Positions 6,181 to 41,547 of a DNA stretch of 46,999 bases are shown in pieces. A program made the translations under genes and the position numbers. The DNA lies in the IMG/VR virus record IMGVR_UViG_3300016476_001496, positions 1 through 46,999 of that record, one strand, 5' to 3'. Within the stretch, counting starts at the first letter, position 1; each line of letters starts with the position of its first letter. The notes below the pieces were generated by a model, which saw only the letters and a list, made by a program, of their open reading frames with translations, was not told the origin of the DNA and made no database searches. This DNA comes from a virus. Its lineage: Duplodnaviria; Caudoviricetes.

Positions 6181-6534
6181 ATGGTAAAAATGGTAAAATT
6201 TGAAGACTTCAAAAAAGAAGAAGAACAAAAAGAGCTTCAAGACTTAGAAAGAACATTTACTAAAAATAGTTCTGATAAACAACAATATCCAAGAAATACA
6301 AAATTTCACTATAATGATGTAACTAAAAAAATGGATGATTTGTCAGTTGATGAGGTTGATGATTCTATTGAAAGTTTAGAAGAATCACATGGAAGTGATT
6401 TAACTGCACACCAGATAGTTCTTAACTCACTTAAAATGTATAATTTGGAAAGTGTTGCTAAAAATGATAGTCTAAAAGAAGAATTGGCAAGAGAAATTGT
6501 AAATGATTTAGTACATGCTAATTTAATGAAATAA
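6181..6534 (+). CDS. Hypothetical protein with capsid-targeting-like leader
   Basis: 117 aa, N-terminus MVKFEDFKKEE. Confidence 0.65.
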   Translation: MVKMVKFEDFKKEEEQKELQDLERTFTKNSSDKQQYPRNTKFHYNDVTKKMDDLSVDEVDDSIESLEESHGSDLTAHQIVLNSLKMYNLESVAKNDSLKEELAREIVNDLVHANLMK

Positions 6535-6565
6535 AAAAAGAGAAGAATAAATCTTCTCTTTTTTT
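6533..6565. terminator. Bidirectional intrinsic terminator
   Basis: aaaaaagagaaga-ataaa-tcttctctttttt between convergent genes. Confidence 0.8.
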
Positions 6566-6893
6566 ATATTAATTTATTTATTGTTAATTCTCTATTAACA
6601 GACTTTGTTATATGACCAAGTACTGTCTTTTCTAACTTATCCTGTATATTAAGTTTTTCTGTATCATCCTGACTATTTTCATATATATCAATAAGTTTAT
6701 AGTTCTCATTATACCAACTATAAAACATATCAATACAAATCTCCATAAAGTCTTCAAAATCATCATTAGACTCATATACTGCTCTTAATACAACCAAGTC
6801 TAAATCATAGAACTCTATAGCAAAATCACTATTCCAACTTATATCAACAACAAAACCTAAATCAACTATCTTATCAAGATGTGTTTTAATCAT
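6564..6893 (-). CDS. Hypothetical protein with C-terminal RxxK(I/L)xxLL-like motif
   Basis: 109 aa ending RELTINKLI. Confidence 0.65.
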   Translation of the reverse strand: MIKTHLDKIVDLGFVVDISWNSDFAIEFYDLDLVVLRAVYESNDDFEDFMEICIDMFYSWYNENYKLIDIYENSQDDTEKLNIQDKLEKTVLGHITKSVNRELTINKLI

Positions 6894-7605
6894 TTAATAA
6901 AGTATCTATTTTTTTATCTCTCAATTCAGTAAGATATTTATTATAATTATTAGAATACATTTTATCAATAACATAACATATTTTACTATCATATGATGAA
7001 AACATATCAAAATCTATAACAATTCTTGGTGTAAAAGTTGCCTCATTTTTAATTTCAGAATCAATATAGTTGATATTTAATCTCAAATCATTTATCAACA
7101 ATACAATATTATCATTAAATCTCATATATGGGTCAATAAATAATTCAATAGTTGATAGAAATCCTATACTATAAATATCAGCACCACTATTTAATACAGT
7201 TGTTTTAAAGTGAAATCTAGCATCATCTTGAATAACCGATGCTAACATTGAACTTAATATACACTTCTTATAACCAGAATTGATAATATAGTCAATCAAT
7301 TCATCTGTAGCAGGTTTAACCAATTCAACATCATTATTATATTTTGATAAATCTAAAAAATCAGTAATAGAATTATCCATTAATTCTTTAACACATTTTC
7401 TACCAATTGATTGAATAATATCATTAGATATATGTTCTTTCATAATATCAAACTCTGCAGGTCCTACACTTACAGATGTAGAATACTTAGCAAAATTAGT
7501 ATTAACAGATTTATCAAATGTTATAACATCACTTAGTTTAATATCATTAAATAGTTCTTTAATCTCTAAATGGATCCCATTCTGGTTCTGTTGCATTTGA
7601 TTCAA
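6886..7605 (-). CDS. Truncated major-capsid-protein paralog with C-terminal RDKKIDTLL tag
   Basis: IYSIGFLSTIELFIDPYMRFNDN and EATFTPRIV align by eye to LYPVGSIGDISIYVDPYMRYNDN and EATFAPRML of the capsid protein at 13713-15416. Confidence 0.8.
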   Translation of the reverse strand: MNQMQQNQNGIHLEIKELFNDIKLSDVITFDKSVNTNFAKYSTSVSVGPAEFDIMKEHISNDIIQSIGRKCVKELMDNSITDFLDLSKYNNDVELVKPATDELIDYIINSGYKKCILSSMLASVIQDDARFHFKTTVLNSGADIYSIGFLSTIELFIDPYMRFNDNIVLLINDLRLNINYIDSEIKNEATFTPRIVIDFDMFSSYDSKICYVIDKMYSNNYNKYLTELRDKKIDTLLND

Positions 7606-8542
7606 CTTTTATTTTTTCTCCAGTCTCAGGGTTGTAATTCATAATCAATAATTCAACACCTTTCTCTTTATCAACACCTTCTACTTTGTTTTTAATAACT
7701 GCAGAAGGTCTATGAAACTCTTTAGAAGTCCAAAAATACTCATCTTTAGGTAATAATTCCTCTAATAATGGAAAGTAATAATATGATAATGACCATCTAC
7801 ATTTAGATTCTTTTAACAACTCTAATAAACGTCTGTGTGAGGAAACACCAAAGGTGTTGTCTGTGTCACATCCATACCAAAATAGTCTTCTACCATCATC
7901 ATCATTTTTAATGTCATTAAAACGAGCATAAGGTGGGTCTAAATACAAATAAGTATCTTCTGAATCATACTTTTTAATTACATCTTCAAAATCCATATTA
8001 TGGAAGTTTGTAATCTTTTGTAATCTTTCAGTGTATTTGTTTTTCTCTAACTTATTGATTAATATTTGTAAGTTTAGTTTATTAGTTTTTTTCTTGAATC
8101 CAGTGAAACCACCACCTCTTGGATAAACTGAACTAAAACTTGATGTTATTAAGAATGCATAAATTGCAGCTACTTTAAAATCACCTAATTCAAAGTTCAT
8201 ATCATCTAAGAAATCATTTGTAACATAAGTTCTATAAATACCTTTATAGAAGTCCCATTTCTTATCTAATTCAGTTTCTTCTGTATATAGAAGTCCACCA
8301 AAGTCCATTAGTTTTTTAAGTTCAACCAAAAACTCTTCTGGTCTTGAACAACATTGCATCAAGTTAGCTTGATGTCTATTTCTATCATTAAAGATAACAT
8401 TTTCAAATTCTAATTTAGAATCTAAATAGATTGCAAATGAACCAGAAAAAGGTTCTACATAAGTTTTACAATCTTTTGGTATTATAGGTGTGATAAAAGA
8501 CTGAAAGTTTGCCTTACCACCAAAATATGAAATTATACTCAT
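7559..8542 (-). CDS. dam: DNA adenine methyltransferase (Dam/D12 class)
   Basis: YFGGK, YVEPFSGS (motif I) and YLDPPY (motif IV). Confidence 0.9.
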   Translation of the reverse strand: MSIISYFGGKANFQSFITPIIPKDCKTYVEPFSGSFAIYLDSKLEFENVIFNDRNRHQANLMQCCSRPEEFLVELKKLMDFGGLLYTEETELDKKWDFYKGIYRTYVTNDFLDDMNFELGDFKVAAIYAFLITSSFSSVYPRGGGFTGFKKKTNKLNLQILINKLEKNKYTERLQKITNFHNMDFEDVIKKYDSEDTYLYLDPPYARFNDIKNDDDGRRLFWYGCDTDNTFGVSSHRRLLELLKESKCRWSLSYYYFPLLEELLPKDEYFWTSKEFHRPSAVIKNKVEGVDKEKGVELLIMNYNPETGEKIKVESNATEPEWDPFRD

Positions 8543-8564
8543 TTTTATATGTTTTTATTTGTTT

Positions 8565-8591
8565 TTATATGAATTGAAAGTCCAAAAGTTT
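8565..8591 (-). promoter_or_regulatory. Putative middle promoter AAAC-N18-TATAA
   Basis: Same bipartite motif found upstream of six other replication/regulatory or accessory genes. Confidence 0.5.
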
Positions 8592-9096
8592 ATTTCTTTG
8601 GAAATAGAACATCATAAAGATTTGGTTTCTTTGTACCATCTAATTCACTTCTAATATCCATTAAAAGTTTACCTAAGTGGTTTTTACCTTTACCTGCACA
8701 TTTCTCACAAGTACATTGACCCCAATAGTTGTCATGCCAATAGTTACCTTCAACTATTGGAACATTACCAGTCATTAGTAACATTTCTTTTAATTCAGGT
8801 TTCTTAAACTTCTCATTAACACCCCAAGTCATAAACTCTAATTTCTTAGAATCCCAGTCAGGTCTTATTTTAATTTGTTGACCTATTTTCTTTACTCTTC
8901 CTGGACTTGGAATTTTTGCAATCATTTCTCTAAAATCCACAGGAGTATAATATACACCATCAATTGTTTGATTACTATTACATTTCATTGCAACATAGTA
9001 ATGTTCTACAGATGGGTAAGTTATACCTTGGTGTTCTATTTCACAGGGGTAGAAGTTTGAAAGAAAACTATATCTACCATTAAATCTATTTATCAT
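8590..9096 (-). CDS. NADAR (YbiA/DUF1768) family protein
   Basis: FLSNFY, YPSVEHYY.AMK, VEGNYWHDNYWG and GKNHLGKLLM motifs. Confidence 0.9.
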   Translation of the reverse strand: MINRFNGRYSFLSNFYPCEIEHQGITYPSVEHYYVAMKCNSNQTIDGVYYTPVDFREMIAKIPSPGRVKKIGQQIKIRPDWDSKKLEFMTWGVNEKFKKPELKEMLLMTGNVPIVEGNYWHDNYWGQCTCEKCAGKGKNHLGKLLMDIRSELDGTKKPNLYDVLFPKK

Positions 9097-9127: not shown

Positions 9128-9607
9128 ATGAAATATTTGAAAAAGTTTTTTGAATCATTTGGAGATAAAAATATTATAGAAGAGTTACAAAAATTTTGTA
9201 ATGAGAACTTAGCCTACTTAATAGATGAAGGTTATCAAGTAAAAGTAATATGGACACCAAATTGTAATGCTTGGAGATTAGTATTTGAAAAAGTTAAAAG
9301 AGAAGCAGCACATTTAAGAGATTCTGAAAGAATAAACTCTTTTTACTGGAGAGAAGTAAAAGATGATTTTATACCTTTCTTTGAAATGTTAGATAGTAAA
9401 TATGAATTATGTGGAACTTTTAACAATGATTGGGTTCCTTCATATCAAAAGGATATTAAAGATGAATTAGTTGTAGATTTTGAAACACCTATGTATATTG
9501 TAGAACATACACATTTCTTCTATGAAAGAAAACAATTGTTATCAGGTAATGTAACAAGAAAAAAAATTAAGAAAATAATTATATATGTAAAAAACCCATC
9601 AAATTGA
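9128..9607 (+). CDS. Hypothetical protein with capsid-targeting-like leader
   Basis: 159 aa, MKYLKKFFESF; AATATATA at 9116-9123. Confidence 0.7.
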   Translation: MKYLKKFFESFGDKNIIEELQKFCNENLAYLIDEGYQVKVIWTPNCNAWRLVFEKVKREAAHLRDSERINSFYWREVKDDFIPFFEMLDSKYELCGTFNNDWVPSYQKDIKDELVVDFETPMYIVEHTHFFYERKQLLSGNVTRKKIKKIIIYVKNPSN

Positions 9608-9617: not shown

Positions 9618-9621
9618 GTTG

Positions 9622-9985
9622 TGGAGCTGACGTTGTACTGCCCAACGTGTCTTTCTCAGTTAATAATAACTATTCATTTACAGGTTTAGTTAGTTTTTCT
9701 AAGCTAACAAAATACTTAGTTTTTGAATCTCAAAACTCTAATAAAAAGGTTTCACTTTTAGACTGGTGACACAGCTTTTTTGTTTTGTAATAGTTAAACT
9801 TAATTAAGCTATTACTAGATCAGAGATCATGTTGTTTTGTAAGCAAGCTACTAAATCTTCACTTGTTCCTACTTCGTTTACGTTTCCGTTTAAATTTGTT
9901 ATCAACTAATTTATTAATCGGCCATTAGACCACCCGATACCTGCATAATCACTACTAGACCACAAATCAATTCTATAACAGCCCC
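9622..9985 (-). ncRNA. ssrA: tmRNA (SsrA), one-piece, CCA not encoded; tag (A)GNVNEVGTSEDLVACLQNNMISDLVIA at 9804-9887
   Basis: 5' GGGGCTG pairs with 3' CAGCTCC-A including a G3:U alanine determinant; T-arm ACGTTG/CAACGT; internal frame after AAATTTAAAC ends Ala-TAA; 364 nt in an ORF-free gap. Confidence 0.92.
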
Positions 9986-10034: not shown

Positions 10035-10730
10035 TTATTCTCCTTTAAATCTTAAAAGTATTATTTTCTCATTAGAATAACCAAATATATATTTATCATA
10101 AATTACTTCATCCTCATCAAATACACCATATATGTAATCTTCATCAATATCACCTTTGAATATTTCATCAATAGTTTCTACTTTTTTACCTAATTTACCA
10201 AAAATGTAATTTGAATCCTCAACCAATCTCATTTGATATTCATTTACATAATTCATAACATAGTCACCATCCTTGTCATGAGTTTCATAACTTGGTGATT
10301 CACCTAAGAAATCATCTAAATCAAATTCTATAACTAATGAGTTTCTATTTGCAAATATACCATATAATTCATTCTTAGTATATTTCTTAATTGTATCTGC
10401 AGGGTCTAGTATTAGATAATAACCATCAGAATAACCTTGTAAAACAACCCAGTGTTTTATTTGTCCACAATATACTGCCAACATCCAAACTTTATTTTCA
10501 GGTTGACTTTTAAAGTATTCTAATGATATATCAGCCATTACTTTATGTTTGATACCTAAATCTCTTATTATCTTAGACATTCTTGACCAAGGAGTACCAC
10601 CAATTTTAGTTGGTGACATACCAAAAATGTCTTGTATTCCAAGATTATCTTTATATCCAGCTTCCATCATTATCATTTTTAATGATGTTGGTCCACAAGA
10701 TGAACCACAATTTTGATTTATATGTCTCAT
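10035..10730 (-). CDS. C39-like (papain-fold) cysteine peptidase
   Basis: Q..SSCGPTSL, HWVVL and ILDPA give the Cys-His-Asp pattern. Confidence 0.8.
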   Translation of the reverse strand: MRHINQNCGSSCGPTSLKMIMMEAGYKDNLGIQDIFGMSPTKIGGTPWSRMSKIIRDLGIKHKVMADISLEYFKSQPENKVWMLAVYCGQIKHWVVLQGYSDGYYLILDPADTIKKYTKNELYGIFANRNSLVIEFDLDDFLGESPSYETHDKDGDYVMNYVNEYQMRLVEDSNYIFGKLGKKVETIDEIFKGDIDEDYIYGVFDEDEVIYDKYIFGYSNEKIILLRFKGE

Positions 10731-11497
10731 TAGTTGTCTTTCTTTTTACAAAATTTAACAATTTCCATTACTTCACTTACATCAAACCCATAGTTAGATA
10801 ATGTATCATTTATATCATTTATTTCAATACCTTCTTCTAGTTCATCATTAATATAATCAATTACACTTATCTGATTTTGTTCATAAAAGTCCAAATATTT
10901 TGTCTTTGGATATTTATTTATACCACCTGGTGTGTAAAATTCAATAGTATAATATACACCAAACAAATCATTAAACATAGTTCTTGTTTTCAACCAGTGG
11001 TTCATATTATTCAAACCATGAAATGCCATACCCCAAATAAATTGAATTTCAGGATGTTTGTTCTCTTTATAATAGTATTTAAGTTTATGTCCTATTCCTG
11101 CTGATTTATATTTTGGGTCAACAAATAATGAAACTCCTTCAACTCCTTTTAAGTTTTCACCTTGAAAATCATAAAAGTTTCCTGGATAATTAGGTAAACC
11201 TGTTTTTTCAAGTATATAACCACCAACTATTTTACCATCTATCTCTGCAATTAAAGAAACCGATAAATCTAATTTACTAAGTGCATAATTATCATGCATC
11301 ATTTTAGTCATAGGATCCTTTAAATCTCCATAGAAATGACCAAAATATTGATATTTTAAGTCTAAACAAGCATCAACATCATTATCAGTCATAGGTCTTA
11401 TGACAACTTCACCTTGTTTTTTATCTTCTTTTTTTTTACCAAATATATTTTTAAAGGATATTTCCTCAAACTTCTTTAGGTGTTTCATATTTTTCAT
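10730..11497 (-). CDS. GNAT family acetyltransferase with capsid-targeting-like leader
   Basis: IRPMT..D, IAEIDGKIVG and LFVDPKYKSAGIGHKL (acetyl-CoA motif A); N-terminus MKHLKKFEE. Confidence 0.8.
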   Translation of the reverse strand: MKNMKHLKKFEEISFKNIFGKKKEDKKQGEVVIRPMTDNDVDACLDLKYQYFGHFYGDLKDPMTKMMHDNYALSKLDLSVSLIAEIDGKIVGGYILEKTGLPNYPGNFYDFQGENLKGVEGVSLFVDPKYKSAGIGHKLKYYYKENKHPEIQFIWGMAFHGLNNMNHWLKTRTMFNDLFGVYYTIEFYTPGGINKYPKTKYLDFYEQNQISVIDYINDELEEGIEINDINDTLSNYGFDVSEVMEIVKFCKKKDN

Positions 11498-11512: not shown

Positions 11513-11890
11513 TTATTCATTATCAAAATCATCGCCATTACCTTCATTGTAATAGAAATTAAACTCTAATACAGTACCTCCAGTTCTTTTAGTTTGATAC
11601 ATATCAAATTCAGTATCATATTGGGGTATAATATCAGTTTTTAAATATTGTAATATATCAAAGATGTTAATCATATCCTTTAATCTTTCCAATTCATAAC
11701 AGAATACTGATATACATATATCATATCCAGAATAGTCAACTGTAAAATCTTCAATACCTCTATTTCTAAGAGTAGTTCTTAATAAGTAAGCAATGTGATC
11801 CATACCATCATTATTATGACCATAATATTCATCATCATAATGGTCTGTATCATCAAAACTCTCTGTAAATTTTTTATAACTATCTATCAT
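11513..11890 (-). CDS. Hypothetical acidic protein with capsid-targeting-like leader
   Basis: 125 aa, MIDSYKKFTESF. Confidence 0.65.
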   Translation of the reverse strand: MIDSYKKFTESFDDTDHYDDEYYGHNNDGMDHIAYLLRTTLRNRGIEDFTVDYSGYDICISVFCYELERLKDMINIFDILQYLKTDIIPQYDTEFDMYQTKRTGGTVLEFNFYYNEGNGDDFDNE

Positions 11891-15501: not shown

Positions 15502-17673
15502 TTATACTCTTCTAAATCTTTCCATAATCATAGAAACTTCTGTATCAGATAGTTTATCCTCTTGGATTAAACCTTCATGAGCAACAAGTTTTTTAGTTAC
15601 AGTTTCATTAGTTTTGATATTTCTAGTTCCCCAGAAATGCTCAATTTGATTTTCAGTTCTTAAAACTTCTTCTGGATATAATCTAGCTTGTGATAAGATA
15701 GATTTTTTAGCAGATTCGTTTAACTGACCCCAGACTGGCTTAATGTTATCAGGCATCAATCTGATTACTCTTTCTTCAAGAGTTTCGTTTTTAGTTGATA
15801 ATGCTTCTGAGATCAAAGTAAGAACTTCTTTCTGTGTGAAATAACTACTCTCGTTTATGTGTAGTTTAACAGTATCTTGTTCTTCATTTGATAGAGCATA
15901 AAAACTATCAACTTGTGATTTGTTTAAGAACTTTAAAAAGTTCAAATCACTGCTTTCAGAAACTTTACGTTTTTTAGCTTCTTCAATTAATTTATTAATA
16001 GATTCAGAAAGTTCAGAGTCTTCATGACCTTTAAATTCTTCTTCTTGTTCTTCTTCATGTTCTGGTGTAAATTCACCTTCTTCTTGGTGACCTTCATGAT
16101 CATGTTCTTCTGCAAACTCAGCAGCATCTTGAGCAAACTCTTCAGCTTCTTCAGCAAATTCTTCAGCCTCATGAGCAAAATCATCATGACCTTCTTCACC
16201 TGCAAATTCTTCCTCTTCTTCTTCTTCTTGAGATTCAAAACCAGCATCTTCAATAGATGGGAATTGAGCTTCATCTTCACCAAAAGATTCATTTAATTTA
16301 CCAAATGAGTTTAATTTTTCAACAATCATTCCTTGGTAAGAAATTGATTTGTCTAAGTTCTCAGCAATGTATTCAGAGTAAGCAATGTTATCATCTAAAT
16401 GTTCAGCAATGTATTCAGAGTAAGCAATGTTACCTTCTACATGTTCTGCTAAATATTCAGAGTAAGCAATTGAATTATCAACATTCTCTGCAATGTATTC
16501 AGAGTAAGCAATATTCTTGTCTAAGTTCTCAGCAATGTATTCAGAGTAAGCAATGTTTTTGTCTAAGTTTTCTGCTAAATATTCTGAATATTCAATGTTT
16601 TTGTCTAAGTTCTCAGCTAAATATTCTGAGTAAGAAATGTTTTTGTCTAAGTTTTCAGCAATATATTCTGAGTAATTGATATTTTTATCTAAGTTCTCAG
16701 CTAAATATTCTGAATACTCAATATTTTTATCTAAATTCTCAGCTAAATACTCTGAATAATTAATAGCTTTTTCTAAGTTTTCAGCCAAGTAATCATTGTG
16801 TTTAGCCAATTTTGTAGTAGTTTCTTTTAATGATTTATTTTCATTAACCACTACTTGGATTTTATCAGCTAAATAATCTAAATATTTAGCAACTTGTGAG
16901 TTAGTGTTATTTAACTCTTCATAATACGCAAGTAATTCTTCTAACTTTTTAGTTGGTAAATTACCTTTTGTAATAGCACTGTTTACTACTTTTTTAGTAG
17001 AAGCAATCTCATTAACTAAATACTTTGAATAGTCACTTAGTTGTTGTTTTGTTACAAAGTCATTGTTGTTCATTTTGAATAATTCATTCGTTTTGGACTC
17101 GTCAGACATTTCATATATCCTAAAGTTATTTTTTTCAATTTGTCCATCAGTACAATAACCTAAAGATTCATTTAATACTTTTACACTCATTTTTGCAGAT
17201 GCAAATCCTGGATCAGCAACAATGTCATATGTAAAAAGTTTTTTCAATGATACTGAACCATCTGATTCAGTAATACCTGCAGCTCTTGATGATACAAAAA
17301 CTGGACATCCGTCATTAACCAATGCCTTAGCTTCTTTACCCCAATATGTACTTAACAATTTGATTTCTCCTTCAACTGTGTTCTTTTCAGAAACATAGTC
17401 AGCTTTGGTAATAATGTGAGATGCTCTTGATAATGATGTATCAAAAACATCCGGGTGATCAAATTCACCATAAACAACACCTAAGCTGCTCATTCTCTCA
17501 TTCAATTCTGCTAATGCAGGCAAGAACTTCTCTGCTGTATAAATTCTCTCATTACGATTCTTCACACCAAATTCTGTGAAAGTACCATTAAGAACAAAAT
17601 CTTTACTACCAGTAGAAGCACTCTCTCTTACAAGAGAATTAGTTGAGTTTTCTATAATTAAAACTGGTTTCAT
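15502..17673 (-). CDS. gp21: Prohead protease (gp21-like) fused to a scaffold/core region
   Basis: KNRNERIY, GEFDHP, VSSRAAG and YDIVADPGF catalytic motifs, followed by coiled-coil repeats and an acidic tract. Confidence 0.9.
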   Translation of the reverse strand: MKPVLIIENSTNSLVRESASTGSKDFVLNGTFTEFGVKNRNERIYTAEKFLPALAELNERMSSLGVVYGEFDHPDVFDTSLSRASHIITKADYVSEKNTVEGEIKLLSTYWGKEAKALVNDGCPVFVSSRAAGITESDGSVSLKKLFTYDIVADPGFASAKMSVKVLNESLGYCTDGQIEKNNFRIYEMSDESKTNELFKMNNNDFVTKQQLSDYSKYLVNEIASTKKVVNSAITKGNLPTKKLEELLAYYEELNNTNSQVAKYLDYLADKIQVVVNENKSLKETTTKLAKHNDYLAENLEKAINYSEYLAENLDKNIEYSEYLAENLDKNINYSEYIAENLDKNISYSEYLAENLDKNIEYSEYLAENLDKNIAYSEYIAENLDKNIAYSEYIAENVDNSIAYSEYLAEHVEGNIAYSEYIAEHLDDNIAYSEYIAENLDKSISYQGMIVEKLNSFGKLNESFGEDEAQFPSIEDAGFESQEEEEEEEFAGEEGHDDFAHEAEEFAEEAEEFAQDAAEFAEEHDHEGHQEEGEFTPEHEEEQEEEFKGHEDSELSESINKLIEEAKKRKVSESSDLNFLKFLNKSQVDSFYALSNEEQDTVKLHINESSYFTQKEVLTLISEALSTKNETLEERVIRLMPDNIKPVWGQLNESAKKSILSQARLYPEEVLRTENQIEHFWGTRNIKTNETVTKKLVAHEGLIQEDKLSDTEVSMIMERFRRV
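16339..16800 (-). repeat. 11 tandem 42-nt coding repeats (YSEY(L/I)AENLDKNIx)
   Basis: 14-aa units read directly in the protease-scaffold translation. Confidence 0.9.
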
Positions 17674-18236: not shown

Positions 18237-20103
18237 ATTAAAAGAAGGTAGTATCTATGAAGGTACTATAGATTTCTCAAATAGTGGTAATGCATCCATT
18301 ATAGTAGAAGACAGAAGTATTTTTATCTATAAAAAAAATACATTGAATGCTCTTAACTCAGATAAAGTAAGAGTTAAAATTATTATTAAGAATAATAAAG
18401 TAGAAGCGGAAGTAATAGAAGTATTAGAAAGATTCCGTACACAATTTGTTGGTAAAGTTCACCTAAACAAAGACCTAACCTTTGTAATACCAGACAGTCA
18501 AAAAATTCCAGTAGATTTTTATATTAAAGGAGACCATGATGCTAAGAATGACCAAAAAGTTTTAGTTGAGTTCTCAAGCTGGGAACCTGGTTCCAAATCA
18601 CCTAAAGGTAAAATTATTGAAATATTAGGAGAATCTGGTGATAATAATACTGAAATGAACTCAATTATGTATGAATATGGATTACCTAATAGTTTTCCAC
18701 TAATGGTTGAAGCAGATGCTGAATTGATACCATTTGAAATATCACAAACAGAAATTGATAAAAGAAGAGATATGAGAAGTATCACTACTTTTACTATTGA
18801 CCCAGTTGATGCAAAAGATTTTGATGATGCACTTTCTGTAAATATATTAGACAATGATATAGTTGAAGTTGGTATCCATATTGCAGATGTATCTCACTAT
18901 GTTAAAGAAGGATCTGATTTAGATGATGAAGCTATAAATAGAGCAACATCAGTTTACTTAGTTGATAGATGTGTACCTATGTTACCTGAAAGATTAAGTA
19001 ATGGTGTTTGTTCACTAAGACCTAATGAAGATAAACTTTGTTTCTCTGTTGTAGTTACTTTAGACAGAAACGGAAAAATATTAAACAAATGGTTTGGTAA
19101 AACGGTTATACACTCTGATAGAAGATATTCTTATGAAGAAGCTCAAGAAATAATTGAAGGTAAAGATGGAGACTTCAAAACTGAAATTATTTTATTAGAT
19201 ACAATTGCTAAGAAAATGAGAAAACAAAGAATATCAGATGGCTCAATTGAAATGGGTGGTATTGAAGTAAGATTTAAGTTAGACCCTATTACTAAAAAAC
19301 CAACTGGTGTTTATTTCAAAACTCAAAAAGATGCAAATAAACTTATTGAAGAATATATGTTACTTGCAAATAAATTAGTTGCAAAAGAATTATCTGATGC
19401 AAAATATCCAAATGTTTATAGAGTACATGATACTCCCAATCTTGAAAAATTAGAAGCACTTTCTTTAATCTGTAAAAACTTTGGTTATACTTTAGAAGTT
19501 GAAGGTGAACCAGCAAACCTTAAAAAATCAATTAATCAATTAGTTGGTGATATTAAAGGTAAACCAGAAGAGAATATGATTGAAACCTTAATCACAAGAT
19601 GTATGTCTAAAGCTACTTATACAATAGTAAACTCTGGACACTATGGATTAGGATTTACTCACTACTCTCACTTTACTTCACCTATTAGAAGATATCCAGA
19701 TTTAATAACTCATAGAGTTTTATTTGATTACTTAAATAAGAAATCTGTTGGAAGTCCTAAGAAAATTGAAGATATGGCTAAATGGTGTTCTGAAAGAGAA
19801 ATCTTGGCAGCAAAAGCACAAAGAGATTCAATTAAATACAAACAAATTGAATACTTAGAAGATAAAATTGGACAAGTATTTGATGGTATAGTTTCAGGAG
19901 TAACTGAATGGGGTATGTATGTTGAACTTATTGAAAGTAAATGTGAAGGTATGGTTAGATATAACAATAACTACACAGTTGATGCTGAAAATTATATTGT
20001 ATTTCCTAAAATGGGTGGTTCAATAAGATTAGGTGATGAAGTTAAAGTTGTTGTTAAAGCAATTGACTTAGATAGAAAACAAATAGATTTTGAAGTATTC
20101 TAA
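18229..20103 (+). CDS. rnr: Ribonuclease R (RNB family)
   Basis: FTIDPVDAKDFDDALS, HIADVSHYV, HFTSPIRRYPDL; N-terminal cold-shock domains and C-terminal S1. Confidence 0.95.
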   Translation: MNKLKEGSIYEGTIDFSNSGNASIIVEDRSIFIYKKNTLNALNSDKVRVKIIIKNNKVEAEVIEVLERFRTQFVGKVHLNKDLTFVIPDSQKIPVDFYIKGDHDAKNDQKVLVEFSSWEPGSKSPKGKIIEILGESGDNNTEMNSIMYEYGLPNSFPLMVEADAELIPFEISQTEIDKRRDMRSITTFTIDPVDAKDFDDALSVNILDNDIVEVGIHIADVSHYVKEGSDLDDEAINRATSVYLVDRCVPMLPERLSNGVCSLRPNEDKLCFSVVVTLDRNGKILNKWFGKTVIHSDRRYSYEEAQEIIEGKDGDFKTEIILLDTIAKKMRKQRISDGSIEMGGIEVRFKLDPITKKPTGVYFKTQKDANKLIEEYMLLANKLVAKELSDAKYPNVYRVHDTPNLEKLEALSLICKNFGYTLEVEGEPANLKKSINQLVGDIKGKPEENMIETLITRCMSKATYTIVNSGHYGLGFTHYSHFTSPIRRYPDLITHRVLFDYLNKKSVGSPKKIEDMAKWCSEREILAAKAQRDSIKYKQIEYLEDKIGQVFDGIVSGVTEWGMYVELIESKCEGMVRYNNNYTVDAENYIVFPKMGGSIRLGDEVKVVVKAIDLDRKQIDFEVF

Positions 20104-20525
20104 TGGAATTAAATGTAAAACTTGATAATAATACTTTAGACCAGTATGATAAGGCACTTTCCACTTATATTGAGTGGAAATCTTTTTATAGAGAAATTAA
20201 ACTAACAACATTACTTGAGGGTAAAAAAGTTCAGTTTGATATTGATAATATACAAAAGATTGGAATGGTATATGATTTTATAACACTTGATAATGGTAGT
20301 AAATTAGACACAATGGCATTTGATATAAAAGGTATGACCTTTATTATAAAAGATAATACTATTGAGAAATTGACCTTAAAGGCAGAATTTTTAGAAACTG
20401 ATTGTGGAAGGAGATTAAAAGAAATGTATGATGCAGGAATAGAACTTGAAGTTAATCAAGTTTTCACTGATAAAAATATTTCTTTTAAGATAACTTTACC
20501 AGAAACTAAAAATCCTTTCAATTGA
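20103..20525 (+). CDS. Hypothetical protein with REIKLTTLL motif and a degenerate prohead-protease-like segment
   Basis: LKAEFLETDCGRRLKEMYDAGIEL resembles the protease segment GEIKLLSTYWGKEAKALVNDGCPV; catalytic SSR absent. Confidence 0.6.
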   Translation: MELNVKLDNNTLDQYDKALSTYIEWKSFYREIKLTTLLEGKKVQFDIDNIQKIGMVYDFITLDNGSKLDTMAFDIKGMTFIIKDNTIEKLTLKAEFLETDCGRRLKEMYDAGIELEVNQVFTDKNISFKITLPETKNPFN

Positions 20526-26886: not shown

Positions 26887-27861
26887 ATGTCAGTAAATAA
26901 ATTATTATTATGGGAAAAATATCGTCCTAAAACTATGGAAGATGTTATCCTACTACCAAGAATAAGAGAACAATTCAAAGATGGTGTTACCCAACACTAT
27001 ATATTTCATGGTCACTATGGAACAGGTAAAACCAGTTTAGCAAGAATACTTATAGGTAAATACTCAAAAGAAACACCATTCTTAGAACTAAATTGTTCTT
27101 TTGATACATCTATAGATGTTCTTAGAACTCAAATTGATGACTTCTGTAAGTTTTCATCAATAATGGACACAACAACATCAGATATAAAATATGTATTCTT
27201 AGATGAGTTTGAAAGAGTATCAACAAACTTCCAAGATGCTTTTAAAGCATTCATTGAAAAGTATAATAAAAATGTTAGATTTATTATAACCACTAACCAT
27301 ATCAACAAAATATCAGATGGTCTAAAATCAAGAATTAAGTTAATTGACTTTGATGTTCAAGGATTAGATGAAGAAAAGTTCTTAAAACAAGAAATCTATA
27401 AAAAGATTACTAATACTATTCTACCTAATGAAGGTGGTGAAATACCTAAAGAAGATTTAATAGCAATAATTAATAAGAAGTTTCCTGATTTCAGGGCTGT
27501 AATAGTTGAAGTTCAAGGATATTTAGAAACAGGAACTTTAAGTAGTGGTGCAAGTAACATATCAAATAAAATCAAGTTAGACTTATACAAAAGTTTATAT
27601 GACAATTTAGATTATGAACAAATCTATCATTTCTTAATGTCAAACTTTGGTGCAGAAAAGATACACTCAATGTTAACTCTTTTAGGTAAACCATTTGTTG
27701 AATGGGCATTTAATGAAAAAAGAGAAGACATCAACAAATTGTTTCAAACAAGTTATGTAGTAACTGAGTTTACACCTAAGTTAGATAGTGCAATTGACCC
27801 TATTATATTAGGAATGACAGTAGTAGGAAAATTTAGAGATATATTAAAAAACCCAGCTTAA
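26887..27861 (+). CDS. Clamp loader AAA+ subunit (T4 gp44/RFC-like)
   Basis: LWEKYRP, Walker A GHYGTGKT, Walker B FLDEFE, FIITTN and PDFR; ATG start at 26887. Confidence 0.92.
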   Translation: MSVNKLLLWEKYRPKTMEDVILLPRIREQFKDGVTQHYIFHGHYGTGKTSLARILIGKYSKETPFLELNCSFDTSIDVLRTQIDDFCKFSSIMDTTTSDIKYVFLDEFERVSTNFQDAFKAFIEKYNKNVRFIITTNHINKISDGLKSRIKLIDFDVQGLDEEKFLKQEIYKKITNTILPNEGGEIPKEDLIAIINKKFPDFRAVIVEVQGYLETGTLSSGASNISNKIKLDLYKSLYDNLDYEQIYHFLMSNFGAEKIHSMLTLLGKPFVEWAFNEKREDINKLFQTSYVVTEFTPKLDSAIDPIILGMTVVGKFRDILKNPA

Positions 27862-27881
27862 TCAACTGGGTTATTTTTTTT
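27846..27881. terminator. Bidirectional terminator
   Basis: aacccag..ctgggtt hairpin flanked by A/T runs at a convergent junction. Confidence 0.6.
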
Positions 27882-28772
27882 ATATTCATCTAAGTTTTTA
27901 TCATTTAAGTATTCTAAATACTTTTGATAGAAAGCTGGATCAACCAAATAGTATTTATCACAAACAAATGTTATTTCTTGGTCAACTATTTTATCCATTT
28001 GATTATCAACATAACCATATACTATGTTTTCTAAATTTTCTCTTAATTCTTTTTCAGCTTCTTCCATATAATCATCAAGACTCATAGCAGGTTCCCAATC
28101 TAAAAGTTTTTGAACATATTCAAATGACTTATTAGATAAATCATCATTATCCTCTTTAACTCTTTTAACAGCAGTTATAATATCTCTATCATATTCAATT
28201 CCATTATAACACCAATCACCATTATTTCCTGGACCATATTGCCAATCCCAATCACTTTCATCAAAATAATACCAATGTTCTCCTTCAATATCACCATATA
28301 AATCTTTTACATCTGGATTCCAATAATACTGATAATCTCCTATTGGGAAAAATAAATAAGGTCTACCATAATCACTTGCCACAGTTGGTAATTTAGAAGC
28401 AAATACACCAACACTTCTTAATTGAACACCAAATTTTTCTTCAAAAAAATTATCTAAAATCTCAGACACTTCTTTTTTTGTGTCAAGTGGTTTTCTATCA
28501 ATTCTAGATCCTTTAACACCTATACCCTTTGTATAAGTATCATCTACATTTTTAGCACCTCTAAAAATAGGTCCTACTTTACCTTCTTTTACTTCATCAA
28601 GAAACTGTTTACACTCATTCTCTAACATAGAAATAATTTCTTGAAATTCCTCATCTGTATATTCTTCATCTTTATATCTTTTATTAGCCCAAGTAATAAA
28701 ATTACCTAAACTTGCAAATCTTATTTTTCCAAATCCTGATGAGAAAAACTCATATGTTTTCATATATTTCAT
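27858..28772 (-). CDS. Hypothetical protein with capsid-targeting-like leader, possible ADP-ribosyltransferase-like fold
   Basis: MKYMKTYEFF; IFRG..VFAS..A.DYG pattern. Confidence 0.55.
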   Translation of the reverse strand: MKYMKTYEFFSSGFGKIRFASLGNFITWANKRYKDEEYTDEEFQEIISMLENECKQFLDEVKEGKVGPIFRGAKNVDDTYTKGIGVKGSRIDRKPLDTKKEVSEILDNFFEEKFGVQLRSVGVFASKLPTVASDYGRPYLFFPIGDYQYYWNPDVKDLYGDIEGEHWYYFDESDWDWQYGPGNNGDWCYNGIEYDRDIITAVKRVKEDNDDLSNKSFEYVQKLLDWEPAMSLDDYMEEAEKELRENLENIVYGYVDNQMDKIVDQEITFVCDKYYLVDPAFYQKYLEYLNDKNLDEYKKNNPVD

Positions 28773-29537: not shown

Positions 29538-30158
29538 TTATTTTATTGGACAATTAGTTGCAGAGTAAATATAATTACTATCTCTTCTAATTTTAACACC
29601 AAAGGTTTTTGCAGCTGTTTCAACATCTAAGTAACACTCTTGGTCAGAACCACCAACCATTACAACTTCTTTACCTTTTAAGTCTGTAAATAAATCTTGT
29701 AGTTTTTTAGGTAAGTGATACCATTTATGATTGTTACCAATGTATATAAGATAAGTATCTTCTGTAGTCTTAAAAAAATCACCTCTTTTTAATTGATGGT
29801 TAGTTTCTTTATGTTTAATATCATTATATACTTTTTCATCTAATATCTTTTTATAGAAATCAGCATCAACATCATAATTATATCTTTTCTCAATCATATC
29901 TCTTTGATTAGGAAAACTATATAAATCATTATGAACTGGAATATCAGGATTTTCATCATAAAGATAATCTTTGTCAACATTTTTACCATCTATATGGTTA
30001 TCCCATATTTGGTAAACATCTTTGAACTTTTTACAATAATCATTAAGTGCTTTCAAATAATTATCATTGAAGAATTTCTTAAAAGACTTTTGAACATCAA
30101 CTATAATTAAGATTCCATTTCCTTTATTAAAATCCTCATATACTTTTAAGTGTCTCAT
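29538..30158 (-). CDS. Isochorismatase/cysteine hydrolase family protein with capsid-targeting-like leader
   Basis: LIIVDVQKSF and VVMVGG..EC motifs; MRHLKVYEDF. Confidence 0.7.
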   Translation of the reverse strand: MRHLKVYEDFNKGNGILIIVDVQKSFKKFFNDNYLKALNDYCKKFKDVYQIWDNHIDGKNVDKDYLYDENPDIPVHNDLYSFPNQRDMIEKRYNYDVDADFYKKILDEKVYNDIKHKETNHQLKRGDFFKTTEDTYLIYIGNNHKWYHLPKKLQDLFTDLKGKEVVMVGGSDQECYLDVETAAKTFGVKIRRDSNYIYSATNCPIK

Positions 30159-31562
30159 TTACATTGAATATCTATTTTTAAGGAAATCTATAAATCTTTC
30201 AGTACCTTCAAGTGCCAATTCTAAATCATTTTTAGAAAGTCTGTTATTAGTTAAATAATACATTGCGTCTGAATAACTCCATCTACTAGCAACCCTATCA
30301 AAAAATCCATTAAGATTATGTAAATATCTTTTTTGTGACATTAATTCTGTAATTGTAGTCAAGTCTGCAAGTAATGTTTCATAGTCATACAAAGTCTCAA
30401 CTTTATATTTAGATACATATTCATAAATCATAGTATTTATTTGCATTAAATTATTGAATATTTTAGAAGGTGTTTTATCATCACTACTATCAACTAAATT
30501 TCTTGTTGAATCCAAACTTCTTTTAATTCTACTTTTATAATCATCCAAAGAGTTAAGATAATTCTCAATATCTCTATTCAAACTATCTATTTTAGATATT
30601 AGTGAATTTTTATTTAGTTGACTACTATCTTTTTGCACTGAATACATAATATCATAAATAGTTTCACCTACAGAATTTATCTTACGCATAGAATCAACAT
30701 CACTTGATGGATTTATAGCAAATAATGCATACTGACCACACAAAAATCTATTTATTAATTTATTTACATTTTTAATTTCATCAAAATTAACATCAATACT
30801 AAATTTACTTCTCTTTATAATTTGTTCAAAATATCTTCTAATATTTTGTTCCTTAATAACTACATGACTTTGTAAAGCCAAAGCACCCCTCTTAATATCT
30901 TTTCTTTCTTGTTTTGTTACTTCTGTACTTTTAACTTTTTTAGATTTCTTTTCCAATTTATCCAAATCTAATATTAATGCAAAGTTTGCACTTTTTAGTT
31001 CTCTTTGAATATCTTCCTCTCTCCAACCATACCAATCTCTTGGTTCAACACTACCATAACTTAAATTGACTAATCTATCATACTTATATGGACTTGTACC
31101 ATCACCATAAACTGAACCATTTGTTGCAGTTTTAGTAATATATTCACCATCTGTATTAAACCAGAACTTAATATATCTCCATTTAGGTTTGAAAGGTTCA
31201 ATACCAGTACCATTACAATGTGGACATTCCATAACTCTTATACGTCCAGCACCCCAACTTCTTTTTAATTTACCATCTTGACATTTCTCACCAGATATTC
31301 CAACTGAACCAAATTCACCTTCTGATGTAGCTCCACACTTCTTTTCTACTGGATCTTTATGAAAGGCCAAAGCTTTTCTAAGTGGTAAATATTCAAATAA
31401 ATCATCACTTATTTCAGATAATGGAAAGTCATTTTTATAGAACATTCTTTCTACATCAAATAAAAATGATTTTCTATAATCTTTATCTACAAACTTCAAG
31501 GTCTTAGATAATTTAATAGATTGAAATGCTTCAAAAAGTTTTATATACTTTAATTCCTTCAT
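30159..31562 (-). CDS. Hypothetical protein with CxxCxGxG zinc motif and capsid-targeting-like leader
   Basis: CPHCNGTG; MKELKYIKLFEAF. Confidence 0.7.
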   Translation of the reverse strand: MKELKYIKLFEAFQSIKLSKTLKFVDKDYRKSFLFDVERMFYKNDFPLSEISDDLFEYLPLRKALAFHKDPVEKKCGATSEGEFGSVGISGEKCQDGKLKRSWGAGRIRVMECPHCNGTGIEPFKPKWRYIKFWFNTDGEYITKTATNGSVYGDGTSPYKYDRLVNLSYGSVEPRDWYGWREEDIQRELKSANFALILDLDKLEKKSKKVKSTEVTKQERKDIKRGALALQSHVVIKEQNIRRYFEQIIKRSKFSIDVNFDEIKNVNKLINRFLCGQYALFAINPSSDVDSMRKINSVGETIYDIMYSVQKDSSQLNKNSLISKIDSLNRDIENYLNSLDDYKSRIKRSLDSTRNLVDSSDDKTPSKIFNNLMQINTMIYEYVSKYKVETLYDYETLLADLTTITELMSQKRYLHNLNGFFDRVASRWSYSDAMYYLTNNRLSKNDLELALEGTERFIDFLKNRYSM

Positions 31563-33316: not shown

Positions 33317-33583
33317 ATGTTTAACCTTTTTGATAAAATACAAATAAAAAATATCCTTGAACAAAAAATAAAGGACAAAGAAATCATTAACTATAAGTTA
33401 ACTGATGATAAACTTTATTTGTATATATCAAACAAAAAGAAAAATAAGAAATATAATATTGACCTAAGTAAAGTATCAGGTAAAGAATTAATATCAGTTC
33501 TTTATAAGACTATACCTAAAGATATTGATAATCACTTCAAAGTTGAAATGAGAAGTGTTAAAATTAGAAAACTATTAAATTAA
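33317..33583 (+). CDS. Hypothetical protein with C-terminal RSVKIRKLL motif
   Basis: 88 aa. Confidence 0.65.
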   Translation: MFNLFDKIQIKNILEQKIKDKEIINYKLTDDKLYLYISNKKKNKKYNIDLSKVSGKELISVLYKTIPKDIDNHFKVEMRSVKIRKLLN

Positions 33584-33587
33584 TTAT

Positions 33588-34049
33588 ATGATATTACAAA
33601 TCACACTACTTATAACAATGGGTTGTCTATTGTTCATGATAATACTATTACATAAATTCTATTCTAAAAATGAAGAATTGAAAAAAGAACTATTTGATAT
33701 AAAAGCTAAAAACAATGAAATGGAAAAGTTCAATGAAGAACTTATGTTGATTGAACCTGGTGATAAAGTAATTTATCCTGATTATGGTCTTTGTTATAAT
33801 CCTAAAACAGATAAAGAAAAGAATTTTAAAGTTACTTATGAACTTGAAGTATTAGATACCTCAAAAGATAAAGTAAAGGTTAGAGCAATTGACTTCACAT
33901 CAACTGATGCAGTTGCAAGAGACCCAAAAAACAAACAAGGTATTATTGATTTTATGAAAGACAAATGGGTAAATAAGAAAGAAATACAATTAATTGTTGA
34001 TGAATCAATTAAAAGAGATATTAAATTAAGAAAATTAGGTATTAGTTAA
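33588..34049 (+). CDS. Membrane-anchored hypothetical protein with C-terminal RDIKLRKLG motif
   Basis: N-terminal hydrophobic helix followed by a coiled coil. Confidence 0.7.
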   Translation: MILQITLLITMGCLLFMIILLHKFYSKNEELKKELFDIKAKNNEMEKFNEELMLIEPGDKVIYPDYGLCYNPKTDKEKNFKVTYELEVLDTSKDKVKVRAIDFTSTDAVARDPKNKQGIIDFMKDKWVNKKEIQLIVDESIKRDIKLRKLGIS

Positions 34050-34387
34050 TGAAAGAATTAGTAGAAATTGAAAGAACCTATATCAAAGATATTATAGAGT
34101 TCTTTTGTAGAAAATCCTTAGAACTATTTATAGGAAGAACAGATTCATTTTCACATGAGGTTACATCTTGGATAGAAAGTAAGATTGTAAAAAGATTACA
34201 TCAAACAGGTCTAATAACTGATTACCGTATTGTTGTTAATTTTTATGATATTGCAGAAACCAGAGAAATGAAAATTGGTCAATTATTAGGAACATCTTCT
34301 GTTACTCCTAAAAATAGTATTGAAGTTAGTGTAAATATGGTAATAGAGATTTTGAAACCTTTGAAGTTGAAATTACTTAATTCTTAA
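34049..34387 (+). CDS. Hypothetical protein with REMKIGQLL motif; weak tail-sheath C-terminal resemblance
   Basis: LELFIG..GLITDYRIVV..IEVSV pattern. Confidence 0.55.
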   Translation: MKELVEIERTYIKDIIEFFCRKSLELFIGRTDSFSHEVTSWIESKIVKRLHQTGLITDYRIVVNFYDIAETREMKIGQLLGTSSVTPKNSIEVSVNMVIEILKPLKLKLLNS

Positions 34388-37855: not shown

Positions 37856-38611
37856 ATGAATACACACACTTTTACCTTTGTAATAGGGTATAGACACAAA
37901 ATGGATAGATTTAACAATCTTAAAAGAACTTTAGATTGGATAAATGGATTTGCAGGTGTTGATGTAATACTTGTTGAACAAGATACACACTCAAAAATAT
38001 CTCACCTACCTCTAAAAGCAAGACAAATATTCTTAAAATCAGATAAACCATATAACAGATCTTGGGCATTTAATGTTGCCACAAAATTTGCAAAATCAAA
38101 TGTAATTGTATTCTCAGATTCTGATTTAATAATGGAACCTAATCAATTCATTGAAGGTCTTAAAGCCATTGAAAAATTTGAAATGGTTAGTCCTTATAGT
38201 TCAGTATTAGACTTAAACCCTCAAGAGTCAAATCTTCAACTTCAAGACATAGTAAAAATAGACAGACCAGGTAGAGGTGAAACCGATAATCAAAAAATTA
38301 ATATTTGTGGTGGTATTAGTATCTTTAGAAAAGATGCCATACAAAGAATTGCAGGATGGAATGAAGACTTTATAGGATGGGGCGGTGAAGATGATTTTCA
38401 AACTATTAAAGTAGAAAACTTTTTAACACACACAACTTTACCACATAAATGTTATCATTTATATCATAATAGAGAAACACTAAATCAAAATGGTTATCAA
38501 AGAACTCTACAATTATTACAGACTCTTAAAAATTTATCAAAAGATGATTTAGTTAAAACTATAAACTTTAGTTTACCAAAAATAGGAATGGTGAATAAGT
38601 ATGACAACTAA
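37856..38611 (+). CDS. GT-A glycosyltransferase (GT2/GT7-C-like)
   Basis: LVEQD, YNRSWAFN, FSDSD (DxD) and GWNEDFIGWGGEDDF. Confidence 0.88.
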   Translation: MNTHTFTFVIGYRHKMDRFNNLKRTLDWINGFAGVDVILVEQDTHSKISHLPLKARQIFLKSDKPYNRSWAFNVATKFAKSNVIVFSDSDLIMEPNQFIEGLKAIEKFEMVSPYSSVLDLNPQESNLQLQDIVKIDRPGRGETDNQKINICGGISIFRKDAIQRIAGWNEDFIGWGGEDDFQTIKVENFLTHTTLPHKCYHLYHNRETLNQNGYQRTLQLLQTLKNLSKDDLVKTINFSLPKIGMVNKYDN

Positions 38612-39347
38612 TATTAAAAAAATATGCAATTATTCAGAAGATGATAAACCTTATCAACCTACTATATCATTTGCATATATAGACTATCTAACAGAAGATG
38701 AAGATGAACTACAAAGAGAGTTAAAAAGACAAAATAGAGACTTAGCTATTGATATTCTATTAGATGAGAAAGATGAAAGTGAATGGGAAAATAGAAATAA
38801 TCTACCACAATTTGGTGGAGGATTTACCACAGTAATGTCACCTAAACTATTTAGTGTAAATACAATTGCTAAAAACTTTACATCATTTGAAGATTTAGAA
38901 TATGAAATATTCACTAAGTTAGAAAATCTAACTAAAAATCAACCTAATAGTAATAACACAATGATGAATAATCTAAACATCAATATTGCTAACTTAAACT
39001 CATCTTATGATTTTGAGGCTCTTCAAAGAAGAGTTATATCAAAAATTATGGTTTGTAAAAATATTGTTACAATGGAAAGTAGAAAAGGTTCAGCAAATAC
39101 AATAATTGTTGGAATAAATGTTACCAAATATATTGAAACCAGAGATATGAATATTAGTGGTATGTTTATTGGTTTAGATATAGTAGTAACTCCTTATATT
39201 GATAAAGATAAAATTATAGTTATGAGAGTTGAAGATAATATATCAATTGGTCTAAATGTTATATTAAAACCAAATGATGATAAATACTATATGGTTGAAA
39301 CACCACAATCTTGGGAAAAGACCATGAAATGGTTCTGGGTAAAATAA
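38601..39347 (+). CDS. Degenerate capsid-protein paralog with RDLAIDILL motif
   Basis: ALQRRVISKI..NIVTMESRKGSANTII resembles capsid AIQRKLITRI..NYIATEGRVGPAQYLI. Confidence 0.65.
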   Translation: MTTNIKKICNYSEDDKPYQPTISFAYIDYLTEDEDELQRELKRQNRDLAIDILLDEKDESEWENRNNLPQFGGGFTTVMSPKLFSVNTIAKNFTSFEDLEYEIFTKLENLTKNQPNSNNTMMNNLNINIANLNSSYDFEALQRRVISKIMVCKNIVTMESRKGSANTIIVGINVTKYIETRDMNISGMFIGLDIVVTPYIDKDKIIVMRVEDNISIGLNVILKPNDDKYYMVETPQSWEKTMKWFWVK

Positions 39348-41337: not shown

Positions 41338-41547
41338 TTAAGATATATGTTTCAAGATTTTTTCTATTTTTTTCTTTCTCATTTCTCTTTTAATTTCAGC
41401 TCCCAATAATCTTTCTAACTCAGCAGATGCATCAATGTTATGATATGATTTTAAATCACTTACCAACTCAGGAGACCAGCTTGCTCTAATTTTCCTGGTT
41501 GTTGCTTTAACTTCAACTTCCTTCATGTTTAAATTTATCTCATTCAT
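41338..41547 (-). CDS. 69-aa gp23 spine-helix fragment with RKKKIEKIL tag
   Basis: VKATTRKIRASWSPELVSDLKSYHNIDASAELERLL matches the conserved gp23 block (R.LKA.(Y/W)S.ELAQDL.A.H..DA.AEL..IL). Confidence 0.8.
   Translation of the reverse strand: MNEINLNMKEVEVKATTRKIRASWSPELVSDLKSYHNIDASAELERLLGAEIKREMRKKKIEKILKHIS

Follow-up and report, generated by a model that had tools for sequence, protein, structure and literature searches.

Directly downstream of a Dam-like adenine methyltransferase gene, a T4-like phage carries a small gene resembling part of its own major capsid protein (MCP), raising the question of what a phage does with a shortened copy of its shell protein and whether this copy enters the shell at all. 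The window, i.e. the whole stretch of 46,999 nucleotides analysed here, is part of the genome of this phage and encodes a portal, a prohead protease, a gp23-type MCP, a head closure protein, a late sigma factor and a clamp loader. Its MCP is 69-70% identical to the MCPs of LR745206 (634,780 bp; W01 in the following, a relative of ~635 kb with 926 ORFs) and LR756502 (642,428 bp), and the window phage is a relative of these 635-642 kb giant phages. Metagenome runs with 20% or more of the sampled words come from freshwater, wastewater, aquatic and estuary samples; among the runs listed as containing the region we found no RNA run.

Two further features of the window were observed. The prohead protease and a long tandem-repeat/acidic region are joined in one protein of 723 aa (15502-17673, minus strand), probably representing a built-in scaffold. 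A divergent tmRNA-like gene lies at 9619-9985 (minus strand) between a C39 peptidase gene and a 159-aa ORF. It aligns to Rfam RF00023 across the whole model with 16.2 bits (gathering threshold 47, E 1.6e-4). By inspection of the sequence, its 5' and 3' ends are complementary, the T-arm is atypical and a CCA is not encoded. ARAGORN missed this gene and, like Rfam at the gathering threshold, gave no match in the window. Its 3' end recurs upstream of NADAR in many relatives.

Mini-MCP-1 is a paralogue of the phage's own major capsid protein

We find that the protein, termed mini-MCP-1, is genuinely paralogous to the gp23-type MCP of this phage, the latter representing its parent lineage. A reading made from the sequence only had pointed out three blocks colinear with the capsid protein, and all three are recovered in order (Table 1) in a pairwise alignment that is significant both by BLASTP (27% identity over 144 columns, E 4e-11) and by Smith-Waterman comparison, the score of 112 being reached by 0 of 2,000 shuffled sequences (mean 35, maximum 62). 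Among the 52 ORFs of the window, mini-MCP-1 and the MCP form the sole BLASTP paralogue pair (E<=0.01). Profile comparison lengthens the match to MCP residues 341-544 (probability 99.3; in a second run 99.7, E 4e-25), a region comprising the spine helix, the A-domain and, at its end, the C-terminal P-domain strands.

The gene had been placed at 6886..7605. It is real, but, as judged from where the database protein and the homologues begin, its likely start is the ATG at 7596, resulting in 236 aa, and not the TTG at 7605. The reported overlap with the DNA methylase gene is present, amounting to 38 nt from this ATG, although it is variable in the relatives with spacings from -56 to +792 nt. Contigs from an independent study (run X2) span the gene, one covering 6940-9039 (51 differences, 6 gap letters) and another covering 6400-6943, so that mini-MCP-1 is not an assembly artefact. 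Pfam (PF07068 included), NCBIfam and PADLOC gave no match for mini-MCP-1, PHROGs returned phrog_28442 at E 0.0099 and nothing else, and a PDB profile search returned gp24 at E 0.035, level with an unrelated ribokinase-like match. The ESM Atlas yielded no match above 0.77 and no model of the protein.

Table 1. Features of the window discussed in the text (positions in the 46,999-nt stretch)
Feature	Position	Strand	Evidence
Mini-MCP-1, 236 aa; HK97 core with spine helix, A-domain, P-domain strands and C-terminal helix ending in tag	6886..7596	-	BLASTP, profiles, predicted structure
R-x-x-K-I-x-x-[IL]-L tag, C-terminal end of mini-MCP-1	6895..6921	-	R226 (98% of 143 members) ranks with the most conserved residues
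Block 1, residues 118-124, LASVIQD vs LAAALQD (MCP 450-456)	7225..7245	-	BLASTP; D124 kept in 87% of 143 members
Block 2, residues 153-163, FIDPYMRFNDN vs YVDPYMRYNDN (MCP 487-497)	7108..7140	-	DPYM motif: D155 91%, P156 86%
Block 3, residues 185-191, EATFTPR vs EATFAPR (MCP 528-534)	7024..7044	-	BLASTP
109-aa ORF whose end is tag-like, frequently located downstream of the mini gene	6564..6893	-	ORF list, locus comparison
Dam-like D12-class adenine methyltransferase, directly upstream of mini-MCP-1, 38 nt overlap	7559..8542	-	PF02086 E 9e-21
AAAC[AT]2-N13-17-TATA element upstream of Dam	8566..8591	-	Sequence
NADAR-domain gene	8590..9096	-	PF08719 E 2e-25
MCP, gp23 type, 567 aa	13713..15416	-	PF07068 E 1.6e-29; phrog_138
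Mini-MCP-2, 248 aa; separately derived HK97-core paralogue with tag-like helix in N-terminal part	38601..39347	+	hhalign, model
Micro-MCP-3, 69 aa; P-domain strand and spine helix of canonical T4-type gp23, running into tag	41338..41547	-	phrog_138 E 3.8e-14

The predicted structure retains the HK97 core

The AlphaFold2 model of mini-MCP-1, based on an alignment of 143 family members, has a pLDDT of 93.5 and a pTM of 0.87, and the matches listed for it by Foldseek/VIA are capsid or encapsulin shell proteins. The best match is T4 gp23 (Z 12.1, rmsd 4.0, 188 residues aligned), placing model residues 19-211 on gp23 residues 105-520, and T4 gp24 reaches Z 11.8 (rmsd 3.8, 198 aligned). The A-domain, the source of the capsomer-centre contacts, is retained, and the C-terminal helix comprising residues 216-235 is an addition ending in the tag.

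The sequence-only reading had described the N-terminal half of the capsid protein as missing. This holds on the sequence level, residues 1-46 of mini-MCP-1 matching nothing in the MCP (hhalign probability 0.2 for the MCP N-arm); structurally, an internal deletion is the better description, because residue 19 of the model is paired with residue 105 of T4 gp23, and such a deletion is suggested by the alignment end points alone. The prodomain, the E-loop linkers and the insertion domain appear to be deleted, while a short N-arm-like helix and a strand are apparently kept. Loss of the E-loop and the insertion domain is indicated by the short stretch of ~8 residues, as median of 143 members, left between the flanking strands where gp23 has the E-loop linkers and the I domain; the absence of the E-loop is judged from the end points and from the spine helix, whose position is fixed by sequence, and not residue by residue. 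The partial HK97 fold that had been expected is thus predicted and its E-loop probably lost, but the N-arm is apparently reduced and not absent. In T4, the I domain is described as resting on the neighbouring subunit and strengthening the capsomer, E-loop and insertion domain clamping the neighbours (PMC9958956).

The mini gene is accessory and lies outside the late-box class

Contrary to the earlier description, mini-MCP-1 is not a direct neighbour of NADAR, as Dam sits between the two. The suggestion of an anti-defence neighbourhood likewise finds no support: Dam and NADAR, with mean identities of 70% and 61% (dN/dS of Dam 0.02-0.11), are conserved and occur in loci without the mini gene as well. 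Because their conservation exceeds the 28% mean identity of the mini (18 loci), we regard them as conserved neighbours, not as evidence for an anti-defence island.

We collected 84 loci with 66 distinct MCPs. As the 143-member alignment was too variable for a locus scan, the MCP as query and an alignment of close minis (3 loci) were used. In 30 distinct-MCP loci the slot is covered, i.e. Dam is intact on the MCP strand and at least 1.8 kb follow beyond, and the mini gene is present in 15 and missing from 15 of these; this count leaves out loci ending early (some with a mini, L019 and L071), the inverted block of L051/L052 (mini present), L086 and duplicate MCPs. Nearly all loci having the mini carry it downstream of Dam, L086 having a mini without Dam. 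Mini-less slots hold other small genes, several with tag-like endings, and no other mini-1 copy was found in five of five larger contigs lacking it at the slot (122-385 kb, all possibly fragments). In the window, the mini gene is separated from the MCP gene by 6.1 kb and by an antisense gene.

A late-type ATATATA box precedes 63 of 65 protease, 55 of 65 MCP and 55 of 62 portal genes (6-8 when shuffled) and is found directly upstream of 0 of 19 mini, 1 of 36 Dam and 4 of 38 NADAR genes, whereas an AAAC..TATA element occurs in 22 of 36 Dam and 20 of 38 NADAR upstream regions (2.2 and 0.8 when shuffled), both patterns having been defined after inspection of the same sequences, from which the timing is read. 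These patterns suggest that mini-MCP-1 is likely made outside the late program, and the element upstream of Dam is a candidate for a non-late promoter that would serve Dam, mini-MCP-1 and the 109-aa ORF.

The mini-MCP-1 family is old and diverges rapidly under purifying selection

Clustering at 90% gives 41 close homologues of mini-MCP-1, and clustering at 50% gives 154 representatives. The 143 aligned members comprise 212-279 aa in a family of ~240 aa, and among the best 150 matches of a search without length limit none exceeds 305 aa. Eight of the 143 match PF07068 at E<=0.01 (best 4e-5), and PF08967 is absent from the ten families matched by the members. A tree built from 21 minis, the MCP cores from the loci of these minis and nine mini-2 sequences, and rooted on the distant mini-2, unites the minis in a single clade (support 0.997). 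Their total branch length is 27.4 compared to 4.7 for the MCP cores, pointing to one old duplication followed by rapid divergence. We rejected a recent duplication from the own MCP, DNA similarity being meaningful only over a 40-nt piece and the minis forming one clade.

At 85-95% MCP-core identity (132 of 153 pairs from 18 loci), the mini cores are on average only 27-31% identical (range 21-87%). As rate control, we compared T4 and ten relatives chosen from 60 spread rows (55 pairs; the pairs of neither set are independent): gp24 cores are 51-99% identical at a gp23 core identity of at least 85% (12 of the 55 pairs), the lowest value anywhere being 44%, resulting in means of 73-78% for gp24 versus 27-31% for the mini at comparable MCP-core identity. 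Close pairs behave differently, the mini being no more diverged than the whole MCP; the window and locus L001 share 87% identity in the minis and 81% in the whole MCPs. In eight of eight mini pairs above 45% identity (21 distinct alleles), dN/dS amounts to 0.16-0.55 (whole MCP 0.26-0.41 in the same pairs), and the mini gene is therefore under purifying selection, with no direct sign of positive selection in these eight pairs. The minis do not follow their own MCP, which ranks 2nd to 18th of 18. We read the conserved mini positions as apparent fold-core residues, explicable by folding alone.

The C-terminal tag marks a class of small, probably non-late ORFs

The tag of mini-MCP-1 is common to many unrelated small ORFs. 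The pattern R-x-x-[KR]-[IL]-x-x-[IL] terminates 107 of the 143 mini family members and 123 of the 926 W01 ORFs, with a mean of 2.5 and a maximum of 7 after shuffling. Another motif, K-x-[FY]-x-x-[FY], begins 83 W01 ORFs versus 15.8 after shuffling, and resembles the capsid-targeting sequence (CTS) of T4. Just two of the 926 W01 ORFs combine the tag with a CTS-like start, none of the 143 mini family members has a capsid-targeting-like N-terminus, and the late-type box stands directly upstream of 0 of 123 tagged but 30 of 81 CTS-like W01 ORFs. The Bacteroidetes-type promoter TAnnTTTG is not enriched upstream of tagged ORFs (22 of 123, compared to 111 of 722 and 10 of 81). Because of its tag and the lack of both a CTS-like start and a late-type box, mini-MCP-1 belongs to the tagged non-late class and not to the class that looks virion-targeted; the T4 CTS itself is described in PMC9958956.

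None of the 123 tagged W01 ORFs matches a named structural or replication family of PHROGs, which misses the mini as well, and BLASTP links three of them to longer W01 proteins, two of these to the MCP. These counts do not support the possibility that the tagged ORFs constitute a general bait library.

In the window, the tag or a variant also occurs on the unrelated small ORFs 33317-33583, 33588-34049, 36546-37055 and 6564-6893, internal copies are present in the ORFs 20103-20525 and 34049-34387, and CTS-like starts are found e.g. at 9128-9607, 10730-11497, 11513-11890, 27858-28772, 29538-30158, 30159-31562 and 43296-43580. In the more distant megaphage LR756501 (735 kb; loci L005 and L116), several small ORFs share another, DPYGE-type tail, one of them being a 78-aa piece of the MCP C-terminus.

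Further genes derived from the capsid protein

The window holds three tagged capsid-derived genes, i.e. mini-MCP-1, mini-MCP-2 and micro-MCP-3. Mini-MCP-2 aligns to MCP residues 302-515 (hhalign probability 96.9, E 2e-10), has 77 homologues and is also present in W01, in W02 and in three of the five contigs without mini-1; its model (pLDDT 80.5) matches gp24 with Z 13.2 (rmsd 3.9, 194 aligned) and gp23 with Z 13.1. Micro-MCP-3 is 33% identical to T4 gp23 residues 248-310 (E 8e-13), reaching Smith-Waterman scores of 101-115 to eleven gp23s and a non-significant 46 to the own MCP, and its family consists of 28 proteins of 60-69 aa, the query counted.

W01 encodes pieces of the MCP N-terminus (157 aa), the insertion region (137 aa, E 0.01), the spine helix (62 aa, E 0.03) and the C-terminus (75 aa), most of which bear the tag or a variant. 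Twelve window genes besides the MCP were checked for extra copies in W01: none was found for portal, thymidylate synthase, RNase R, sigma factor, head closure protein and three unnamed genes; the protease has one piece of 83 aa, Dam and M28 peptidase have near full-length paralogues, and protease and clamp loader have one marginal match each. Several pieces were thus found of the MCP but not one of portal, thymidylate synthase, RNase R, sigma factor or head closure protein, and judged from these comparisons the MCP is singled out for copying. Other truncated MCP paralogues are encoded by LR756501 (188 aa) and LR756500 (313 aa).

W01 also carries five Dam-like and five M28-peptidase-like paralogues. 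Its ORFs 93266-93520 (plus strand) and 554784-555284 (minus strand) copy the Gly/Ala-rich MCP segment 32-95, a match whose score may be inflated by low complexity, and they have no C-terminal tag, one showing a CTS-like start.

Possible functions of mini-MCP-1

Our data support that mini-MCP-1 behaves like a non-structural gene, being accessory, without late-type box and fast-evolving, and suggest a location of the protein outside the virion. The earlier reading as an assembly-incompetent capsid mimic is partly supported, both incompetence for assembly and mimicry being putative; the A-domain with its capsomer-centre contacts is retained. As best explanation we tentatively propose, at somewhat less than even chances, that mini-MCP-1 is a free capsid look-alike binding host MCP sensors outside the shell. 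According to this model mini-MCP-1 would be made outside the late program and stay out of the shell, would bind host proteins recognising capsid monomers and thereby shield the real MCP, and its C-terminal tag would dock the bound complex to a putative hub, so that sensing does not fire. For Avs7, Avs8 and Avs10, binding to the penton/hexon face of the A-domain in apparently monomeric MCP is reported (PMC13581612), and sensing of the MCP is described for Thoeris ThsB1/B2 (PMC12578639) and for CapRel SJ46 (PMC13728456). The model fits because a non-late, tagged and accessory HK97 core keeps the face of the A-domain bound by the sensors, without the clamping parts.

The main objection is that an HK97 core might equally trigger the sensors: as conserved core folds are what Avs sensors are reported to recognise (PMC13581612), a copy of the A-domain could set off defence instead of blocking it, a difficulty that docking by the tag may solve. 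Also speaking against a look-alike are that the minis do not track their own MCP, that conservation of the fold core is explicable by folding, that a direct sign of positive selection is missing and that PADLOC gave no match. A wider version of the model, which we consider doubtful, is that megaphages field a set of capsid look-alikes, pre-dating the MCP in expression and sharing the same docking helix, which would catch receptors of capsid patterns and pass them to a silencing or destroying hub. Such a set would consist of two whole E-loop-less HK97 cores and of short pieces of the N-terminus, the insertion domain, the spine helix and the C-terminal strands, one being of foreign T4-type. If true, this would be a trigger-mimic anti-defence system made from the phage's own most-sensed protein.

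The location directly downstream of Dam in most loci is reminiscent of Family 4 encapsulins, which are likewise reported downstream of enzymes (PMC8346489), and together with the conservation of tag residue R226 and the lacking tie to the own MCP sequence it would suit an HK97 core exapted for a job unrelated to capsids or capsid sensing, e.g. as scaffold or chaperone for the neighbouring enzyme or a tag-reading hub, a type of role also proposed for the A-domain encapsulins. We judge this unlikely: Dam occurs without the mini in half of the loci counted and the mini of L086 occurs without Dam, and the repeated copying of different MCP pieces, some (62-75 aa) too short to fold alone, points to capsid likeness as the selected trait.

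Rather unlikely, in our view, is a role in assembly, in which the mini, through its retained A-domain and spine helix, would enter capsomers during their growth or interact with scaffold or chaperone and thereby delay the own heads or spoil those of co-infecting T4-like phages. The retained core of A-domain and P-domain would allow this, micro-MCP-3 is far nearer to foreign T4-type gp23 than to the own MCP, and for Ccm, an MCP homologue at 24% identity, co-assembly and redirection of assembly are reported (PMC8569155). However, Ccm retains N-arm and E-loop, and co-assembly with the own MCP core, which is 89% conserved (the MCP insertion region being just 52% conserved) should constrain the surface of the minis, which are ~28% identical to each other and no nearer to their own MCP.

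The top structural matches being gp23 and gp24, and the complete relatives W01 and W02 lacking a full-length second gp23-family gene, mini-MCP-1 might also be a vertex (penton) or minor virion protein, i.e. a reduced counterpart of gp24; even its patchy presence would be compatible with such a role, as T4 gp23 mutations are described to bypass gp24 (PMC9958956). We nevertheless consider this improbable given the missing I domain, the lack of a late-type box in all 19 mini upstream regions, the distance from the MCP gene with an antisense gene in between, the absence from 15 of 30 loci and a divergence far faster than that of gp24. Rapid divergence and frequent absence would suit a slowly decaying relic of the old duplication with no present function but folding, a highly improbable reading that is largely refuted by the 154 clusters at 50% identity, the narrow length range of the 143 members, dN/dS below 1 in all eight close pairs and the conserved tag.

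Comparison with known systems

The free look-alike model would give mini-MCP-1 the place of a ligand, possibly imitating the MCP, for sensors such as Avs7/8/10, Thoeris ThsB1/B2 and CapRel SJ46. In the main texts of Creative Commons articles in PMC and of bioRxiv we found neither a phage-encoded MCP decoy against Avs, Thoeris or CapRel nor a description of the mini family or its tag. Several bacterial immune systems (Avs7/8/10, Thoeris, CapRel) are known to be triggered by the MCP, the core of which is little changed. Tagged MCP copies that probably lack the E-loop are a ready reagent for asking whether phages blunt capsid sensing by decoys. Should mini-MCP-1 instead act as an assembly poison or as a minimal penton, it would reveal how small a part of the HK97 fold suffices to join or block a capsomer. 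The mini genes also give the unexplained megaphage tag its first passengers of recognisable fold.

Like mini-MCP-1, T4 gp24 (PDB 1YUE, 5VF3 chain a) is an HK97-fold paralogue arisen by duplication of a gp23-type MCP (gp23: PDB 7VRT; PF07068). However, gp24 comprises 410-432 aa and keeps the I domain region, whereas the mini has 236 aa (212-279 aa in the family) and is tagged; in eleven phages gp24 is encoded 0.08-1.6 kb from gene 23 and is at least 44% identical, whereas the mini is accessory, outside the late-box class and ~28% identical within the clade. Ccm of SaPIbov5 (PDB 7RWZ) is likewise described as an MCP homologue, of ~24% identity, acting on capsid assembly, but it is satellite-encoded, its HK97 fold is complete, including delta domain, N-arm and E-loop, and it forms pentamers in the virion (PMC8569155). 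Mini-MCP-1, in contrast, shares its contig with the genes for MCP, protease and portal and probably lacks the E-loop. The Family 4 A-domain encapsulins (PF08967/DUF1884) share with the mini a truncated HK97 fold, a position downstream of an enzyme and a function described as speculative, but these are cellular proteins of ~100 aa consisting of the A-domain only (PMC8346489), while the mini adds the spine helix and the P-domain strands, is gp23-derived, viral and tagged and has no match to PF08967 among its families. By the features compared, mini-MCP-1 is therefore neither gp24 nor Ccm nor a Family 4 encapsulin, and it is partly like each of them.
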